From assembly GCA_028692765.1 (NCBI GenBank), contig JAQUWT010000004.1, positions 405-64,404 of the forward strand: a stretch of DNA of 64,000 nucleotides. Reading direction: 5' to 3'. The DNA comes from Patescibacteria group bacterium (GTDB lineage Bacteria > Patescibacteriota > Patescibacteriia > Patescibacteriales > UBA12465). The notes under the pieces were generated by a model. The model was not told the origin of the DNA and made no database searches. It saw nothing but the letters and a program-made list of their open reading frames with translations. How positions within the stretch are numbered: the stretch's first letter is position 1; the number at the start of each line of letters is the position of its first letter. Shown here piece by piece: positions 58,680 through 64,000 of the stretch. The position numbers and the translations under genes were made by a program.

Positions 58680-58766
58680 GGAGAGGTGCCAGAGTGGTCT
58701 AATGGAACGGTCTTGAAAACCGTCGCTGGTGAAAGCCGGCCCAGGGTTCGAATCCCTGCCTCTCCG
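58680..58766 (+). tRNA. tRNA-Ser: tRNA-Ser (anticodon UGA), long variable arm
   Basis: acceptor GGAGAGG/CCTCTCC, anticodon loop CTTGAAA, long variable arm, T-loop TTCGAAT. Confidence 0.9.
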
Positions 58767-58794
58767 CAACATCGTGCTAGCACGAGGTACTAAG

Positions 58795-58824
58795 AAATAG
58801 AGCTTATTTAGGCTCTATTTTTTG
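58795..58824 (+). terminator. terminator after tRNA-Ser
   Basis: AATAGAGC-ttatttag-GCTCTATT followed by TTTTT. Confidence 0.65.
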
Positions 58825-58842
58825 TTATATCAAAAATTAACC

Positions 58843-58871
58843 TTTACTTTTTGGCCATTTTAAGGTATATT
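58843..58871 (+). promoter_or_regulatory. promoter of the structured leader
   Basis: TTTACT (58843-58848), 17 nt, TATATT (58866-58871); the predicted TSS coincides with the first base of helix P1 (58878). Confidence 0.4.
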
Positions 58872-58877
58872 TTAAAT

Positions 58878-59030
58878 GCGAAACCATAAATAATCCTGCG
58901 AAGTACGCGCTAACTATGTTGGCCGCCTTGGCTTATTTGCATACAGGAACGGGCACTCCGACCGCATGCAAATAGGCGTCTTCGCAGACACCATTTGTGG
59001 TTTCGCAACCAGGTCGGGTGTCCGTTTTTA
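58878..59030 (+). promoter_or_regulatory. candidate riboswitch-like / attenuator leader upstream of the zinc-ribbon genes (unassigned family)
   Basis: Nested helices: P1 58878-58891/58994-59007, P2 58895-58907/58976-58987, P3 58933-58943/58965-58975. A competing 14-bp helix pairs 58949-58963 with 59012-59025 and is followed by UUUUUAUUUUU. All wobble pairs are G-U on the plus strand. Confidence 0.45.
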
Positions 59031-59043
59031 TTTTTACTAATAT

Positions 59044-59271
59044 ATGAATTTACAAGAGATAAAACAATGTCCTTTTTGTGCCGAAGCTATTAAGGCTGAA
59101 GCTATTAAATGCAAACATTGTGGGGCGGATTTGAAACATAAACCCAATGATTTTAAGTTATTAACAAAAGAAAAATCAAAAGAAGGGTTATTTTTAAAGA
59201 CGATGAATTGCGGTTGCGCAGTTATCTTTTTTATAGCCTTTTTGGTCATTACCCTGGCCATTATAAACTAA
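59044..59271 (+). CDS. zinc-ribbon protein with C-terminal TM anchor (75 aa)
   Basis: CPFCAEAIKAEAIKCKHCG zinc ribbon, hydrophobic C-terminus. Confidence 0.6.
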   Translation: MNLQEIKQCPFCAEAIKAEAIKCKHCGADLKHKPNDFKLLTKEKSKEGLFLKTMNCGCAVIFFIAFLVITLAIIN

Positions 59272-59281
59272 TTAAAATTTT

Positions 59282-60454
59282 ATGAAAAAATGTCCTTTTT
59301 GCGCAGAAGAGGTTCTTGATGAAGCTATAGTTTGCAAACATTGCAAAAGTAGTTTATTAGAAAAAGAGAAATGCTCCTCAAAAAATGAGTTAAAAAATTT
59401 TAGAATAAATCCTAACGGGAAAAATAAAAAAATGTTAAAGATTATTAAAATTATCATTTTAATAATTATTGGTATTTGGTTATGGTATTTAGCATTACCG
59501 GCATTAGCGATATGGTATATTTGGAAAAAGGGCAAATTTAATAAAAAAAAGAAATACATTTTTAGCGGTATTGTTTTAGTTCTTTCAATTGTAATTTGGT
59601 CTAGCTTGATAAAGACTTCAGAAGAAAATAACATGGTTCCAAAATTAATTATTATTGAACCACAGGATAATCAAAGTATCCAGTCTAGCAGTATAACAAT
59701 TAAAGGTAGTGTTTTCCCGAAAAAATCTAAAATAAGGCTTGGGGATTCAGTAATTGAAAAAGATTCTGATGGTAATTTTTCTTACGAAGTTGCACTTGCG
59801 GACGAAAAAAATGTTATATCTGTTATTGCGGAAAATGGGAAGAAAAATGATCAAGCATCCTTAAATATAAATCGTATTTTTACCGAGGCGGAATTAGAAC
59901 AGAGGAAGATTGATGAAGCTAGAAAAAAAGAGCAAGAAGCTATGATTGAGAATGAGGCGGCGCAGAAAAAAATTGAATCAATTGAAAAGGAAATTGATTC
60001 AATTGGTAAATTCGATAATACAAAATATCGAGGCACTCCAGAAAACTTAGCCTTTGAAGTGGCTTTATTTAAAGTATGGGCTATCGAGATACAGGAGGCA
60101 AAAAATGATAGCAACCAAGAAGTAAAAAATATTGGCCAACAACTAGAAAACAAAGTTAAACAATTGCAGATCAAAGAATTTCCCTTAATGAGAAAAGAAT
60201 ACGGGAGTTTGATTGGAAAGAAATTATGGGAAAATGATATAGATGTAAATGTTAGTGGTCAATCATATAATACTATAGAATTTATAGGCGGTATATTTGC
60301 TGCAAATAAAAATATCAAAGAAATCCATGCGACTCTGATAGAAATGCTAGAAATGTTAAGATTTGATAGAGCAAATTATAAATGGTATGAGTATGATTCC
60401 AGTTATTCTTATTTTAAGATTGAGAGTCATGCTGATAGTGATATAGTCCAATAA
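59282..60454 (+). CDS. zinc-ribbon membrane protein with Ig-like and coiled-coil extracytoplasmic region (390 aa)
   Basis: CPFCAEEVLDEAIVCKHCKS (paralogous to the upstream gene), 2-3 TM, beta-rich segment IIIEPQDNQSIQSSSITIKGSV..., Glu/Lys coiled coil. Confidence 0.65.
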   Translation: MKKCPFCAEEVLDEAIVCKHCKSSLLEKEKCSSKNELKNFRINPNGKNKKMLKIIKIIILIIIGIWLWYLALPALAIWYIWKKGKFNKKKKYIFSGIVLVLSIVIWSSLIKTSEENNMVPKLIIIEPQDNQSIQSSSITIKGSVFPKKSKIRLGDSVIEKDSDGNFSYEVALADEKNVISVIAENGKKNDQASLNINRIFTEAELEQRKIDEARKKEQEAMIENEAAQKKIESIEKEIDSIGKFDNTKYRGTPENLAFEVALFKVWAIEIQEAKNDSNQEVKNIGQQLENKVKQLQIKEFPLMRKEYGSLIGKKLWENDIDVNVSGQSYNTIEFIGGIFAANKNIKEIHATLIEMLEMLRFDRANYKWYEYDSSYSYFKIESHADSDIVQ

Positions 60455-60520: not shown

Positions 60521-61804
60521 TTATTTTATTTTTATTACTTTATTACTTAATAAAATCTTCCCATTTAAGCACATCAGCAGCTCTCGCTTCTCCTGATCAT
60601 CGCCTTCCTTTAATAAAAATTTAATATAGTTTTTAACATCGACGTCACTCACGTCGATGTTTTGATTTCTGCCAGTAGCCATCATTTGGAATTTCTTGAA
60701 TCTTTTTATCTCTCCCTCAATCTTGTCTTGAACTGGTAACTTTTTAAAATCCAATTTATTAATTTGTTTTTGTAATTGCTTAATTAAATCTTCTTCGCTG
60801 ATATATCCGCACTTACAATTTTTATCCTTTGCCTTGGTGCAACCATAATAAATATGACGGTTATAACCGCCATTTTTTAATTTCTTAAACTTTTCGGTGG
60901 CTGATATTCCTGAACCGCACAATCCGCAGGTCATAATTTTAGTAAAAGCGAATTCAATGTTTTCTCGTCTGACCAGTTGCGAGTTTTTCATTTGATCCTG
61001 AACTAAATCAAATAATTCTTTAGTTATTAATGGTTCGTGCTTTCCTTGATACCAATTGCCACTGCCTCGCGGGTATTCAAATGGGCCATAATAGAAGGTG
61101 TTTTCTAATAAACGATAGATATTGCCAAGACTTAAATGTTTTTTGCCCAGTGCCGTTCGAAAGTTTAAATCAAATCTTAACCAATTATATAGTTTTCTGC
61201 CTGACCATTTTTCATAAGCGACTTTTTCAAACATTTGTCTAATCACGTGGCCTCTATCTGGATCGATTAAGCATTGTCCTTTGTGATCAACTCGCTTTTC
61301 TTTAAAATAACCAGTTGGCGGACAAGTCGGCCATAAACCCCTTTCACATCTAGCTCTTAAGCCTCTTTTTACATTAATACCCCTATTGTCATTTTCGAGT
61401 TTTGCTTGAGAACACAAAATCATAAGCAAAAACTTTTCATTTGGTGAGTTGCTAAATGTCTGACCAAAGGTGCGAATGCTCATTAATTTTTTCTCATCCA
61501 TTAAATCAACTAGTGATCCTAAGTCGCCAGCGTTTCTTGATAATCTATCAGGAGCCCAAGTTAAAATAGCGTTAAATTTTTCTTCTGCTATATCTTTTAG
61601 TAATTCCTTAAAAATGGGACGATTGCCAGAATCTTTAGCGGATTTTGATTCTCGTCTAATATCGACGATTTCTAGATTTTCTCGTTCGGCAATTTGAAGC
61701 ATCTCTTTAACCTGAGAATCAATGGACTGAACCTGTCTTTCATCTGATTCAGTGCTTTTTCTAGCATACAGGCAATACTTTAAGGGAGCGTCTAATGGAG
61801 GCAT
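60521..61804 (-). CDS. large serine recombinase (phage integrase type)
   Basis: 427 aa; resolvase catalytic N-terminus YARKSTESDERQVQSIDSQ, recombinase domain, Cys-rich zinc ribbon CGLCGS...GCTKAKDKNCKCG. Confidence 0.88.
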   Translation of the reverse strand: MPPLDAPLKYCLYARKSTESDERQVQSIDSQVKEMLQIAERENLEIVDIRRESKSAKDSGNRPIFKELLKDIAEEKFNAILTWAPDRLSRNAGDLGSLVDLMDEKKLMSIRTFGQTFSNSPNEKFLLMILCSQAKLENDNRGINVKRGLRARCERGLWPTCPPTGYFKEKRVDHKGQCLIDPDRGHVIRQMFEKVAYEKWSGRKLYNWLRFDLNFRTALGKKHLSLGNIYRLLENTFYYGPFEYPRGSGNWYQGKHEPLITKELFDLVQDQMKNSQLVRRENIEFAFTKIMTCGLCGSGISATEKFKKLKNGGYNRHIYYGCTKAKDKNCKCGYISEEDLIKQLQKQINKLDFKKLPVQDKIEGEIKRFKKFQMMATGRNQNIDVSDVDVKNYIKFLLKEGDDQEKRELLMCLNGKILLSNKVIKIK

Positions 61805-61927
61805 ATGGTTTAATTTTAATTATTAGTTAAATCTACGCCTCCATTAATGACACACTTTTAAGCTTTTGCTAAGCAGCTAGCTGTTGGCAACTTGTCGATA
61901 ACTTCCCCTTTAATATTAAAGGAAATA

Positions 61928-63400
61928 TTACCAATATAAGGTATAAACTCTAGGTGGATTAGGGCGTTTATCCAGTAAACTGTGGGCTAAATTAACAAAA
62001 GCATCAGCCAGATCATCATGTTTTTCTACTCCAAAATGAACTATTTGTTGAATTAACTCCTCAGCTCCTTTTCTTGGAAATAGTATTTGCCCGTTTTTAA
62101 TCATATTAGCTGTCAGAACAAGTCTAGTCCGCTTATCTTGGCTTCCTGGATGCGTAGTCATGACGTTACCAATCCCCTCAACTTTTAACTGTTGAGGAAG
62201 AGCTTTTTGATAAGCGACATCTTCTACAACTAATTTAACAAGGTCATAATCTTTTTTATAACTCTCATACATAACTTTGCAAGTATCGATTGTTTCAGGG
62301 AAGTTAAGTCGTCTGTTGATTATCTTGGGTAAGATATAAATGTTATAACCTGTTTTAGTTTCAAATAGTAACCCAGGAACCATAGCTGTATAATCAGCGA
62401 CAGAACTTTGAGAGATAGCAGGATCAATACCGATTCTAACTTCAAGATGTGATTTATATCCGCCGTACATATCCATCCTTTCTGGAATCTCATCATAATA
62501 ATTAATCCATTCAGGGTAAATAGCTTGGTCATCGCTAGGAACAATATTTAACAGATATTCTTGTTGCCAAGTAATCTCATTGCCAACTTTTTTCCGCTCT
62601 GCTTCAATATCTTTATCGGTTGGGTATTTACCAGGCCACAAGCAAATACCTTTTTTATTGATTAACGGGTAGAAAAGGAAATTGCCATCAATAATTTCTT
62701 TTTCCTTTTCTTCTTTTAATCTCATAAGCAAAGAATCTTCATGTAAGAGGTTTCCCACTATAACCAGTCTTGTGTCCTTATCGCCAGCAGGGATTACTTC
62801 GCCTTTAAGCCATTGATAGGTTTTATTGCGACCATCTCTAGTTTTGGTCGAGCTGATATCTTCTACATCATCACAGATAATCAAATCTGGTCGGCTTTCA
62901 TAATGTCTAATACCTCTAATACTTTGATCAACGGAGGCGACAGTAATTCTGGCATCGGTATTTGAGAAGACAATTGACTGTGCGCCCCATTCATCGCTGT
63001 TTTCTCGAAATGGACCAAGGTCTTTTTTAAGTAAGTCGTTATCTTCTAATTCTCGACGTAAATTCATCATATGCTGTTTAGCCTGGGCTTGGGTTTGACA
63101 GAAGATAACAACAAACTTTTTCTGTTGTTTGCCAAGGATTGCCCAAATCGGATAAGCGGCTGTGATAATGGTTGATTTGCCTGAGCCTCTAAAAGCGACT
63201 ACAAATAAATTCTCTTTATGACTTGATTCAATCAGGGAAATTATGTTTTTCTGAAAATCCGCTGTTTCATATTTAACGTAATGAGCGTAATAGAAGTGAA
63301 AGAAATAAGAAAAACTTTCTCTAGTTATCGCCGTTCTTATTTTCTTGTCCTGGGTCATTTGCTCCACCATCTCTTGTGGAATCATCTTGTTTACTATCAT
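61928..63400 (-). CDS. phage terminase large subunit
   Basis: 490 aa; Walker A-like AFRGSGKST, Walker B LIICDDVED, C-terminal RNase-H-like nuclease half; an internal ATG (for example 63358) may be the true start. Confidence 0.85.
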   Translation of the reverse strand: MIVNKMIPQEMVEQMTQDKKIRTAITRESFSYFFHFYYAHYVKYETADFQKNIISLIESSHKENLFVVAFRGSGKSTIITAAYPIWAILGKQQKKFVVIFCQTQAQAKQHMMNLRRELEDNDLLKKDLGPFRENSDEWGAQSIVFSNTDARITVASVDQSIRGIRHYESRPDLIICDDVEDISSTKTRDGRNKTYQWLKGEVIPAGDKDTRLVIVGNLLHEDSLLMRLKEEKEKEIIDGNFLFYPLINKKGICLWPGKYPTDKDIEAERKKVGNEITWQQEYLLNIVPSDDQAIYPEWINYYDEIPERMDMYGGYKSHLEVRIGIDPAISQSSVADYTAMVPGLLFETKTGYNIYILPKIINRRLNFPETIDTCKVMYESYKKDYDLVKLVVEDVAYQKALPQQLKVEGIGNVMTTHPGSQDKRTRLVLTANMIKNGQILFPRKGAEELIQQIVHFGVEKHDDLADAFVNLAHSLLDKRPNPPRVYTLYW

Positions 63401-63815
63401 ATGTGTTTGTATTATTAATTATTAATTGCTCTTCAGCTGGTAATAGTTTAGCCAGTTTCAAAGCGTGTTTTACTACTTCTGCCTGCGCAGGAGTTAGCTC
63501 GTCAGTATCTTCTATTTTAGAAGTTACTTCTATCTTGTCTTTAAACCTTGGATTGCGATGTCTAAGCCAAAAGCTAATCGCCGACCAATTTTTCTCCTTT
63601 ATCATCGTTAAGAGTTGGCTTTCACTCATATCATTTACCAAAGCCTCGCCTTCAGCTAAAGCTTCATCCATCACCTTGGAAAATTCTTTATCTTCTCGTT
63701 TCCAGCGATAAACACTATTGCGAGAGATGCCTGATTTTTCACAAGCGACTAAAACAATTGGCACTTTTTTAAGCTCATCAAAGAAGGCTTCTTGTAATCG
63801 GCTTTTTTTAGACAT
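63321..63815 (-). CDS. HTH protein, probable terminase small subunit
   Basis: 164 aa; N-terminal HTH ACEKSGISRNSVYRWKRE; sits directly upstream of and overlapping the terminase large subunit. Confidence 0.6.
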   Translation of the reverse strand: MSKKSRLQEAFFDELKKVPIVLVACEKSGISRNSVYRWKREDKEFSKVMDEALAEGEALVNDMSESQLLTMIKEKNWSAISFWLRHRNPRFKDKIEVTSKIEDTDELTPAQAEVVKHALKLAKLLPAEEQLIINNTNTYDSKQDDSTRDGGANDPGQENKNGDN

Positions 63816-64000
63816 GCTCCACCACCTCCTTTCTGCCTGTTAGTTTTCGATATCTCGCTATCGCCAGATCACAGAAAACTGGCTCAAGCTCCATGGCATA
63901 TACTTTTCTTTTTAGTTGTTCGCCAGCAATTATTGTGCTGGCTGATCCTGAGAAAGAATCAAGGATAATATCACCTGGCTTGGTACAGCGCCTTAAAGCC
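63808..64000 (-). CDS. DNA methyltransferase (N4/N6 family), C-terminal fragment cut by the window edge
   Basis: Translation ...PGDIILDSFSGSASTIIAGEQLKRKVYAMELEPVFCDLAIARYRKL. The stop overlaps the next gene's start (ATGTCTAA). Confidence 0.65.
   Translation of the reverse strand, partial: ALRRCTKPGDIILDSFSGSASTIIAGEQLKRKVYAMELEPVFCDLAIARYRKLTGRKEVVEHV

Follow-up and report, generated by a model that had tools for sequence, protein, structure and literature searches.

Near the right end of the window, i.e. the 64,000-nt stretch of a Patescibacteria group bacterium analysed here (GenBank assembly GCA_028692765.1, contig JAQUWT010000004.1, positions 405 to 64,404 of the forward strand), a promoter, a folded RNA and a U-run stand directly ahead of two zinc-ribbon protein genes. 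The whole module is placed between a tRNA-Ser gene and the recombinase and terminase genes of a prophage-like element. An earlier note on this DNA had read the region as a riboswitch-like leader. Comparative sequence analysis indicates that it encodes a real, strongly conserved structured RNA of ~150 nt, which belongs to a family not described before and is borne by prophage-like elements of Patescibacteria. To our knowledge, very few non-coding RNAs have been described in Patescibacteria (candidate phyla radiation, CPR) and their phages, and the RNA presented here adds a well-supported structured member to them.

The transcription unit opens with a sigma-70-type promoter on the plus strand, which is the strand of all the RNA features given below. 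A consensus scan located it at 58843-58871, with the -35 box TTTACT (58843-58848), a 17-nt spacer and the -10 box TATATT (58866-58871), in agreement with the promoter named in the earlier note. The transcription start site (TSS) is predicted to fall on G58878, the first base of helix P1. In eight homologues (L131, L137, L151, L144, L138, L105, L162 and L214), a -35/-10 pair stands equally far from the first P1 base, with spacers that vary in sequence. Just upstream of the promoter, an ordinary terminator hairpin (58797-58824; AUAGAGC-loop-GCUCUAU followed by U6) closes the tRNA Arg-Asp-Ser cluster, and the RNA is therefore a separate transcription unit.

The RNA is closed by P1, whose 5' strand (GCGAAACCAUAAAU, 58878-58891) pairs with AUUUGUGGUUUCGC at 58993-59006. 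Inside it lie P2 (CUGCGAAG-U-AC at 58896-58906, paired with 58978-58987) and P3 (58931-58942 with 58966-58977), the latter capped by a 23-nt apical loop, L3 (58943-58965). P1, P2 and P3 with its loop were thus correctly placed in the earlier note. Its description of three nested helices is nevertheless incomplete, as the 23-nt junction that it had drawn between P2 and P3 is mostly a fourth, small hairpin, P2a (GCGCUAAC-UAU-GUUGG-C-CGC, 58907-58926), which appears in the minimum free energy (MFE) fold and is supported by covariation. The core is a three-way junction carrying P2a and P3 and enclosed by P1/P2. P2a varies in length between homologues and is absent from L214.

The fold of 58878-59036 has an energy of -62.5 kcal/mol, compared with -41.8 +/- 3.6 kcal/mol for dinucleotide shuffles (z = -5.7; none of 200 shuffles is as stable). 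The minus strand of the region is equally stable by folding energy, so comparative data are needed to assign the strand. The element occurs in a single copy within the window, which speaks against a repeat or a miniature inverted-repeat transposable element (MITE). It had been described as a GC-rich region inside AT-rich DNA; this is true locally, but not of the window overall, whose GC content is 42%.

Homologues were sought with a covariance model (CM) built from the single sequence, and then with a pattern scan of metagenomes. The permissive pattern used in the latter matched GC-rich genomes by chance, and among the matches listed 9 of 120 loci were real. At least 12 metagenome homologues were recovered, with CM E-values of 1e-8 to 1e-24. 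A diverged member of the family, L214, was found in a viral contig of IMG/VR (28 bits, E = 3e-4); its promoter spacing and the order of P1, P2 and P3 are those of the window. The single-sequence CM also found diverged copies upstream of homologous gene pairs in L085-L090 and in L091. The copy in L174 (reverse strand, 56-192) is a natural 5' truncation: the promoter region and the 5' strand of P1 are missing, whereas P2 and P3 are present together with tail, U-run and the zinc-ribbon genes that follow. A recurring GC-rich sequence that matched the metagenome pattern in L102, L124, L135, L146, L166, L178, L184 and L205 (accccgtcacgaACGGGCACGTCGA-49 nt-GTCGGGAACCCG) probably belongs to a coding region conserved among high-GC bacteria and has nothing to do with the RNA.

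Eleven distinct sequences were aligned to the family model, which comprises 42 nested pairs. Standard pairs fill 96.3% of the cells, and compensatory double changes occur in 27 of the 42 pairs: 7 of 14 in P1 (98% of cells paired), 8 of 10 in P2, 6 of 12 in P3 and all six modelled pairs of P2a. None of 500 shuffles reaches the observed pairing and covariation values. When the partners are slid by 1-3 columns, pairing falls to 36-45%, and RNAalifold agrees with the nested covariation. P1-P3, for which the earlier note had proposed a search for homologues and covariation, are thus strongly supported by covariation. That note would have been refuted by a lack of homologues, by missing covariation in P1-P3 or by a match to a known family, and none of these was observed.

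Several pairs switch between U-G and C-G or U-A, and they do so on the plus strand only; read on the other strand, they would be A-C mismatches. The CM scores the plus strand at 193 bits versus 23 bits for the minus strand. The plus-strand G-U pattern and the CM scores settle both the strand and the nature of the element, i.e. RNA and not DNA. The earlier note had argued for a plus-strand RNA from the wobble pairs of the window, and this stands on the G-U pattern across homologues, the promoter and the U-run, though not on folding energy (see above).

In the relatives L066-L072, the larger of the two downstream genes encodes a protein 76-78% identical to the 390-aa protein of the window. The promoter, RNA and U-run show no difference in 194 nt between the window and L066 and L072. 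In the same relatives, nucleotide divergence amounts to 2.4-9.6% in the upstream flank, 4.4-7.9% in the gene of the 75-aa protein and 14-22% in that of the 390-aa protein. This pattern of divergence argues that the RNA is under strong purifying selection.

Apart from the nested helices, nucleotides 58949-58963 of L3 (ACGGGCAC-U-CCGACC, with U58957 as the bulge) are complementary to the 3' tail GGUCGGGUGUCCGU (59012-59025), which would form the 3' strand of a long-range (pseudoknot) helix. This pairing, which had been proposed in the earlier note, comprises 14 bp with one bulge and has an energy of -26.4 kcal/mol (RNAduplex), equalled by 2 of 2000 shuffled tails. L3 is nearly invariant in 11 homologues, its sole freely variable base being the bulge; among these 11 close members, 98.7% of the cells of the loop-tail helix are paired and 11 of its 14 pairs are invariant. 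The tail is essentially invariant in the family, the exceptions being one G to A change in L091 and a first-base G to A change in L086 and L091, and the terminal loop-tail pair of L086 has changed from C:G to U:A. In L214, three loop-tail pairs are flipped from C:G to G:C, with the helix retained and the bulge in the same place. The variant L074 has the same architecture with a 12-bp loop-tail pair of quite different sequence. In L074 and four RNAs of the LOOT motif (see below), the loops and tails differ in sequence and still form 11-16 bp, with none of 2000 shuffles as good. In every case examined, L3 is the best partner of the tail in the whole RNA. We conclude from these comparisons that the loop-tail pairing is real.

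Immediately past the tail, each of the 13 family members has a U-run (UUUUUAUUUUU at 59025-59035 in the window), where the RNA is predicted to end and which would serve as the terminator tract. A scan of 59000-59036 found no canonical local terminator hairpin (GC-rich, with a 3-8 nt loop and a U-run right after it), because the stem partner lies 50 nt upstream; the sole local hairpin in the tail found by folding has 3 bp. The terminator stem is predicted to be the pseudoknot of the P3 loop and the 3' tail itself, as no other stem would qualify as an intrinsic terminator. Between the U-run and the start codon, no significant complementary elements were found in the window family, with the exception of L214. 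A resemblance of the loop to tRNA-Pro 3' ends is weak and was judged to be due to chance.

The tail has a possible second partner in the internal loop between P2 and P1, the conserved J2/1 segment (58986-58993; family consensus GGAYACC, AGACACCA in the window), with which it could form an alternative (ALT) helix of 6-10 bp. Across the 11 sequences, 94% of the cells of this helix are paired, and the variation of J2/1 is all Y-to-Y opposite G, plus a U-A pair in L091. As a tail partner, J2/1 ranks second in L138 (-18.7 kcal/mol) and L214 (-14.0 kcal/mol) and third in the window (-11.3 kcal/mol). In L091, the G to A change in the tail breaks the pairing with L3 (C.A) yet gives a U-A pair with J2/1. 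In L214, as read from the sequence, two tail changes are matched in J2/1 too, and the ALT helix is retained through two flips. In L074, the second tail partner adjoins the tail, so that the two make up a local terminator hairpin of the usual kind. A tail that co-varies with two partners suggests a conformational switch, and a tail frozen by the need to match both of them is typical of RNA switches.

P1 and the tail are joined by a linker of 1-5 nt. On this geometric argument, the tail helices would fit poorly with a fully closed P1. The earlier note had presented the helices as competing with the terminator. As the loop-tail helix shares no strand with P1-P3, a simple competition is not evident, and any exclusivity would come from the topology imposed by the short linker and from the second tail partner.

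Downstream of the U-run, the first gene (59044-59271, plus strand) encodes a 75-aa zinc-ribbon protein with a C-terminal membrane segment. Its ATG at 59044 lies 8 nt past the U-run, which leaves no room for a promoter of its own. The second gene (59282-60454, plus strand) encodes the 390-aa protein, composed of an N-terminal zinc ribbon, transmembrane (TM) helices, an immunoglobulin (Ig)-like domain, a coiled coil and a small alpha/beta domain. Its AlphaFold model (pLDDT 85.5) was matched in Foldseek by Ig-like domains only, and so gives no functional clue. Although the leader RNA is identical in L066 and L072, this gene (59282-60454) has diverged by 14-22%, and the homology ends just past its stop codon (60482 in the window); the locus may be mosaic, or the gene may be under diversifying selection. 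In L093 (57-1120), an IS3-type insertion (HTH_Tnp_1 and rve) truncates the N-terminus of a 390-aa homologue and replaces the leader region.

A co-oriented open reading frame (ORF) begins 16-62 nt past the modelled 3' end of the RNA (8-54 nt past the U-run) in 13 of 13 members, and no recognisable promoter lies between the U-run and the start codon of this cargo. What is encoded there varies. In the window, L086, L091, L137 and L174, one or more DZR-type zinc-ribbon membrane proteins are followed by a larger Zn-ribbon/TM homologue of the 390-aa gene (after two such proteins in L137). The first downstream gene belongs to Zn_ribbon_15 in L105 and L190 and to Zn_ribbon_Top1 in L162, which makes a zinc-ribbon membrane protein (of three Pfam families) the first product in 8 of the 13 loci. 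An Mrr-like nuclease gene takes this position in L144, an 859-aa secreted protein in L151 and genes without assignment in L131 and L138, and L214 carries an N6_N4 methylase of type III restriction-modification (R-M) together with a ResIII helicase. L138, L105 and L162 have a common upstream gene and ~97% identical RNAs, and their sequences are unrelated just past the U-run. No consistent association of the downstream genes with one pathway was found across the 13 members.

Searches of known RNA families, and of phage sequences by blastn or exact pattern, gave no relative of this RNA. Against Rfam 15, the whole window at the gathering threshold yielded tRNAs only; at E<=10 there was no match over the RNA in 58700-59150, and at E<=1 none over its homologues in seven loci. 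The earlier note had recognised no known class in the RNA, and this holds. In GenBank phages, blastn detected no relative of the RNA. Among exact patterns searched in IMG/VR, the loop 15-mer gave chance matches only, and the junction 18-mer and the strict loop+tail pattern gave none. We found no description of the RNA in the literature. Signal recognition particle (SRP) RNA, 6S RNA, RNase P RNA and tmRNA were rejected, as were Y RNA, retron msr/msd, omega or bridge RNAs, T-box and integron attC, since there were no signature sequences or partner genes and no Rfam match.

A genome scan with the 390-aa protein gave 11 loci, in none of which the CM finds the window-type RNA. A scan for GC-rich tails pairing 35-95 nt upstream brought up the L074 variant and the LOOT motif (RF03000), described by Weinberg et al. 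2017 (PMC5737381). The passages on LOOT in PMC5737381, PMC7779021 and PMC7657543 report it from metagenomes only and list it without functional data. In our material, the LOOT model scores 62-85 bits (Rfam gathering threshold 46.4) on L075, L077, L078, L215, L221, L223 and L226. LOOT lies directly upstream of the homologue of the 390-aa gene in L075, L077 and L078; the other four loci are viral contigs fetched via homologues of the recombinase and terminase of the window, and in L215, L221 and L223 LOOT is directly beside the recombinase gene. The gene order of L075, i.e. [recombinase<-][LOOT->][387-aa homologue->][<-terminase], matches the module of the window, [RNA->][75 aa][390 aa][<-recombinase][<-terminase]. 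The orphan LOOT motif is thereby placed for the first time in a biological context: prophages of Patescibacteria, where it stands beside large serine recombinases and heads variable defence or membrane cargo.

Four LOOT RNAs were examined, at 3794-3950 of L075, 3733-3873 of L077, 3822-3960 of L078 and 6170-6308 of L215 (minus strand). LOOT resembles the window RNA in its place within related elements, being promoter-proximal, ahead of variable co-oriented cargo and next to large serine recombinases of Patescibacteria phages. The four RNAs examined also resemble it in having a long hairpin with a 21-29 nt apical loop that is complementary over 11-16 bp (14 bp in the window RNA) to a 3' tail lying outside the Rfam model, with a U-run next in most. 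The scaffold, however, is different. LOOT consists of four consecutive hairpins (H1 with CCUAA...CAUGG, the long H2 and two of GNRA type) without an enclosing helix, whereas in the window RNA P1/P2 enclose a three-way junction and the LOOT sequence signatures are missing. The LOOT model has no match on the window RNA (58700-59150, E<=10) or on the seven homologous loci (E<=1), and conversely the family model R2 has none on the LOOT loci L075 and L077.

Three of the four LOOT loci (L077, L078 and L215) contain an anti-tail just past the U-run, and in two (L078 and L215) the 5' strand of H2 is repeated close to the start codon. Both features hint at a cis mode of action; in the window family, L214 excepted, they are missing. 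The Rfam consensus of LOOT draws an upper stem in hairpin 2, which is largely unpaired in L075 and L077. The window RNA is new to Rfam and can be described as a LOOT-like prophage RNA on a different scaffold. Two unrelated scaffolds would thus share one trick, namely a terminator stem made from a distant hairpin loop and the 3' tail.

Based on these observations, we favour, with about as much confidence as reserve, the view that the RNA is a promoter-proximal leader or attenuator acting in cis, with a pseudoknot terminator that gates the cargo genes of the prophage. Transcription would start from the conserved promoter at the first base of P1 (58878), and the transcript would fold into the closing P1, then P2, with the variable P2a and P3 on the three-way junction. 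The P3 loop would then pair with the tail (59012-59025) right before the U-run and thereby create the terminator. Most transcripts would stop there, yielding a stable small RNA, and readthrough into the cargo would be set by the partner that the tail takes: the P3 loop, J2/1 or neither. The last of these states might arise if P1 closes first, or if a factor masks the loop.

The fold with its covariation, the two complementarities of the tail, the conserved promoter and U-run and the genomic context, as seen in the family alignments and loci, are the ground on which this view is built. Termination at the U-run, the switching and the signal controlling it are, on the other hand, what we infer. 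In favour of a cis-acting leader are the tight spacing of the cargo with no intervening promoter, the tail with its dual partners and the LOOT parallel. Of the two possibilities left by the earlier note, riboswitch or attenuator, the cis attenuator is the best reading, and the sensing of a ligand would be speculative. If termination does depend on the pseudoknot, the RNA would be a compact, re-addressable gate for horizontally acquired genes.

Several points weigh against such an attenuator. The TSS, the termination and the readthrough are all predictions, and the steric clash between P1 and the tail helices is a geometric argument drawn from the 1-5 nt linkers. As each of the two tail pairings runs up to the U-run, neither is an obvious antiterminator, and the downstream genes have no common function that would point to a signal. 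The neighbourhoods are almost entirely co-directional, which makes the co-orientation of the cargo weak evidence for action in cis. Since the loop and tail barely vary outside L214, L074 and the LOOT RNAs, most of the evidence for the pseudoknot comes from a few diverged sequences. Finally, LOOT, the closest analogue, is filed in Rfam as a small-RNA gene.

The last point leads to the main rival explanation, which we regard as possible but doubtful: a stand-alone small RNA (sRNA), acting in trans or bound to a protein, whose promoter and pseudoknotted terminator merely set the ends and lock the 3' end in the fold. The downstream genes would then be neighbours, expressed by leaky readthrough or other means. 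Such an sRNA would be consistent with the predicted TSS on the first P1 base, with 5' and 3' ends that pair with each other, as in stable RNAs, with a conservation of helix, loop and tail sequence beyond the needs of pairing, and with the type 'Gene; sRNA' given to LOOT in Rfam. It would also account for downstream genes that are mutually unrelated, in neighbourhoods that are co-directional anyway. However, a cargo that starts 8-54 nt past the U-run without a recognisable promoter would have to be expressed by readthrough. Moreover, no target of the loop or tail was found elsewhere in the window beyond chance matches, and no candidate partner protein consistently adjoins the RNA.

A more far-reaching proposal, which appears rather unlikely to us, is that the window RNA, its relatives and LOOT constitute a superclass of phage 'loop-to-terminator' RNAs with lineage-specific pairs of loop and tail addresses. 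They might act in Patescibacteria phages as a trans, RNA-programmed switch for immunity or cargo control, in which a released sRNA could build or block the terminator helix on transcripts of the same or an incoming phage, or else form loop-tail multimers, as in phi29 pRNA or the ROOL/GOLLD cages.

Quite improbable, in our opinion, is an RNA-based immunity or specificity device similar to c4 of phage P1 or CI of P4. Here the P3 loop of the released RNA would pair in trans with nascent tails of the same or an incoming related phage, form the terminator and shut off the downstream genes, and the loops and tails would define specificity groups. Within a lineage the loop and tail are indeed frozen, and from one lineage to another (window family, L214, L074, LOOT variants) they change together as matched pairs; the 1-5 nt linker past P1 makes pairing in cis sterically awkward. 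As in the c4 RNA of P1/P7 and in P4 CI, the RNA is borne by a prophage-like element, in the leader of its own operon, with lineage-specific loop/target pairs. Two copies complementary to one segment of the same transcript also recall the seqA/seqC and a1b1/a2b2 arrangements of P4 and P1. On the other hand, the window RNA is larger, has a three-way junction and carries its target inside the same RNA, at the terminator. What lies downstream of it is cargo (R-M enzymes, nucleases, membrane proteins), not antirepressor, lytic or replication genes. The C4 families of Rfam give no match, and in LOOT, with its long linkers, pairing in cis is feasible. What is seen in the sequences is loop-tail complementarity only, so that action in trans would be hypothetical.

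A metabolite or metal riboswitch, with P1-P3 as the aptamer and a ligand deciding whether the tail forms the terminator, must be judged very improbable. The earlier note had proposed zinc or another metal as a first guess, and small zinc-ribbon membrane proteins are encoded first downstream in 8 of the 13 loci. These genes, frequent though not universal, are all that speaks for zinc. The architecture, too, is similar to that of terminating riboswitches and attenuators (pbuE adenine, ZTP, SAM-IV), with a promoter, a domain closed by P1, a helix followed by a U-run and then the genes, and with a 3' segment that has alternative partners. SAM-IV and ZTP riboswitches, moreover, contain a pseudoknot of a hairpin loop and the 3' tail, and so does the window RNA, which also has conserved unpaired nucleotides in L3 and J2/1. 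Nevertheless, the gene directly downstream varies across the 13 members of this family, whose loci are prophage-like, and the remaining genes (R-M methylase with helicase, Mrr-like nuclease, 859-aa secreted protein and unknowns) share no common pathway. Zinc ribbons are structural motifs and not transport or homeostasis genes. J1/2, opposite J2/1, varies in length and sequence, unlike a binding pocket, the conserved 'unpaired' nucleotides are explained by the tail pairing, and a different scaffold (LOOT) stands at the same position in related phages. The RNA also differs from known riboswitches in having no ligand, coherent regulon or clear antiterminator, in a terminator stem that would be the pseudoknot itself, and in helices that are long, nearly perfect and partly conserved in sequence.

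A DNA-level element (recombinase attachment site, single-strand origin or palindrome), suggested by a GC-rich imperfect inverted repeat beside a tRNA gene and a serine recombinase, by a minus strand that folds equally well by energy and by the homology of close relatives that ends right past the U-run, is scarcely tenable: a DNA site is excluded by the alternation of U-G with C-G or U-A on the plus strand only, and speaking against it are also the conserved, strand-specific promoter and U-run, the difference in CM score between the strands, and a covariation that maintains a three-way junction and pseudoknot needless for duplex DNA sites.

Two other phage leaders should be mentioned in connection with the proposed cis attenuator. 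The lambda PR'-tR' '6S' leader starts at a constitutive phage promoter and gives a short transcript, which a strong terminator ends before variable moron or late genes are reached; unlike the window RNA, it is not known to have a covariation-supported fold or a loop-tail pseudoknot, and it relies on the Q protein. The put leader RNA of HK022 is structured and promoter-proximal, consisting of two simple stem-loops that suppress termination, and it likewise is not known to use a loop-tail pseudoknot.

As regards the wider setting, the element is likely to be bounded on the left by tRNA-Ser(UGA) (58680-58767, plus strand, with its own terminator hairpin at 58797-58824) as the integration site, and a large serine recombinase is encoded on the minus strand at 60521-61804. 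In L066-L072 (positions 1-120), tRNA-Ser(GCU) replaces the tRNA-Ser(UGA) of the window (58680-58830), with the same 3' end and flank (CTCTCCGCAACATCGTGCTAGCACGAGG...), and five contigs of relatives break inside the 3' end of the tRNA. The different tRNA-Ser, the identical 3' flank and the contig breaks suggest an attachment (att) site; the tRNA-Ser 3' end is a probable attachment site or assembly branch point.

Large serine recombinases are encoded in the window, L086, L137, L151, L174 and L214, and those homologous to the recombinase of the window flank the RNA in L151 and L214 as well as the LOOT RNAs of L075, L215, L221 and L223. The window and L144 contain a terminase gene, L137 has one for a tyrosine integrase, and L138 and L190 encode proteins that match PHROGs. 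Although frequent, the serine recombinase does not keep a fixed position, and some loci, e.g. L131, have none. The neighbourhood of L131 looks more chromosomal; a 500-aa gene two genes upstream of the RNA is, by its N-terminus, presumably a prolyl-tRNA synthetase gene. By their gene content, the loci are integrative or prophage-like elements and do not make up a metabolic regulon.

The region 60521-64000 of the window, which continues in L065 (reverse complement), is prophage-like, with the large serine recombinase, TerL (phrog_38) and a helix-turn-helix (HTH)/TerS-like gene. The continuation in L065 encodes an N6_N4 methylase, an S24 repressor, RusA and a 632-aa ORF, with no capsid or tail genes in about 9 kb, and the element may be a remnant or a satellite. 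At a distance of a few kb from their RNA or LOOT modules, L066 (4203-5599), L214 (11375-12490) and L215 (4083-5481) carry genes of the diversity-generating-retroelement type (bAvd and reverse transcriptase).

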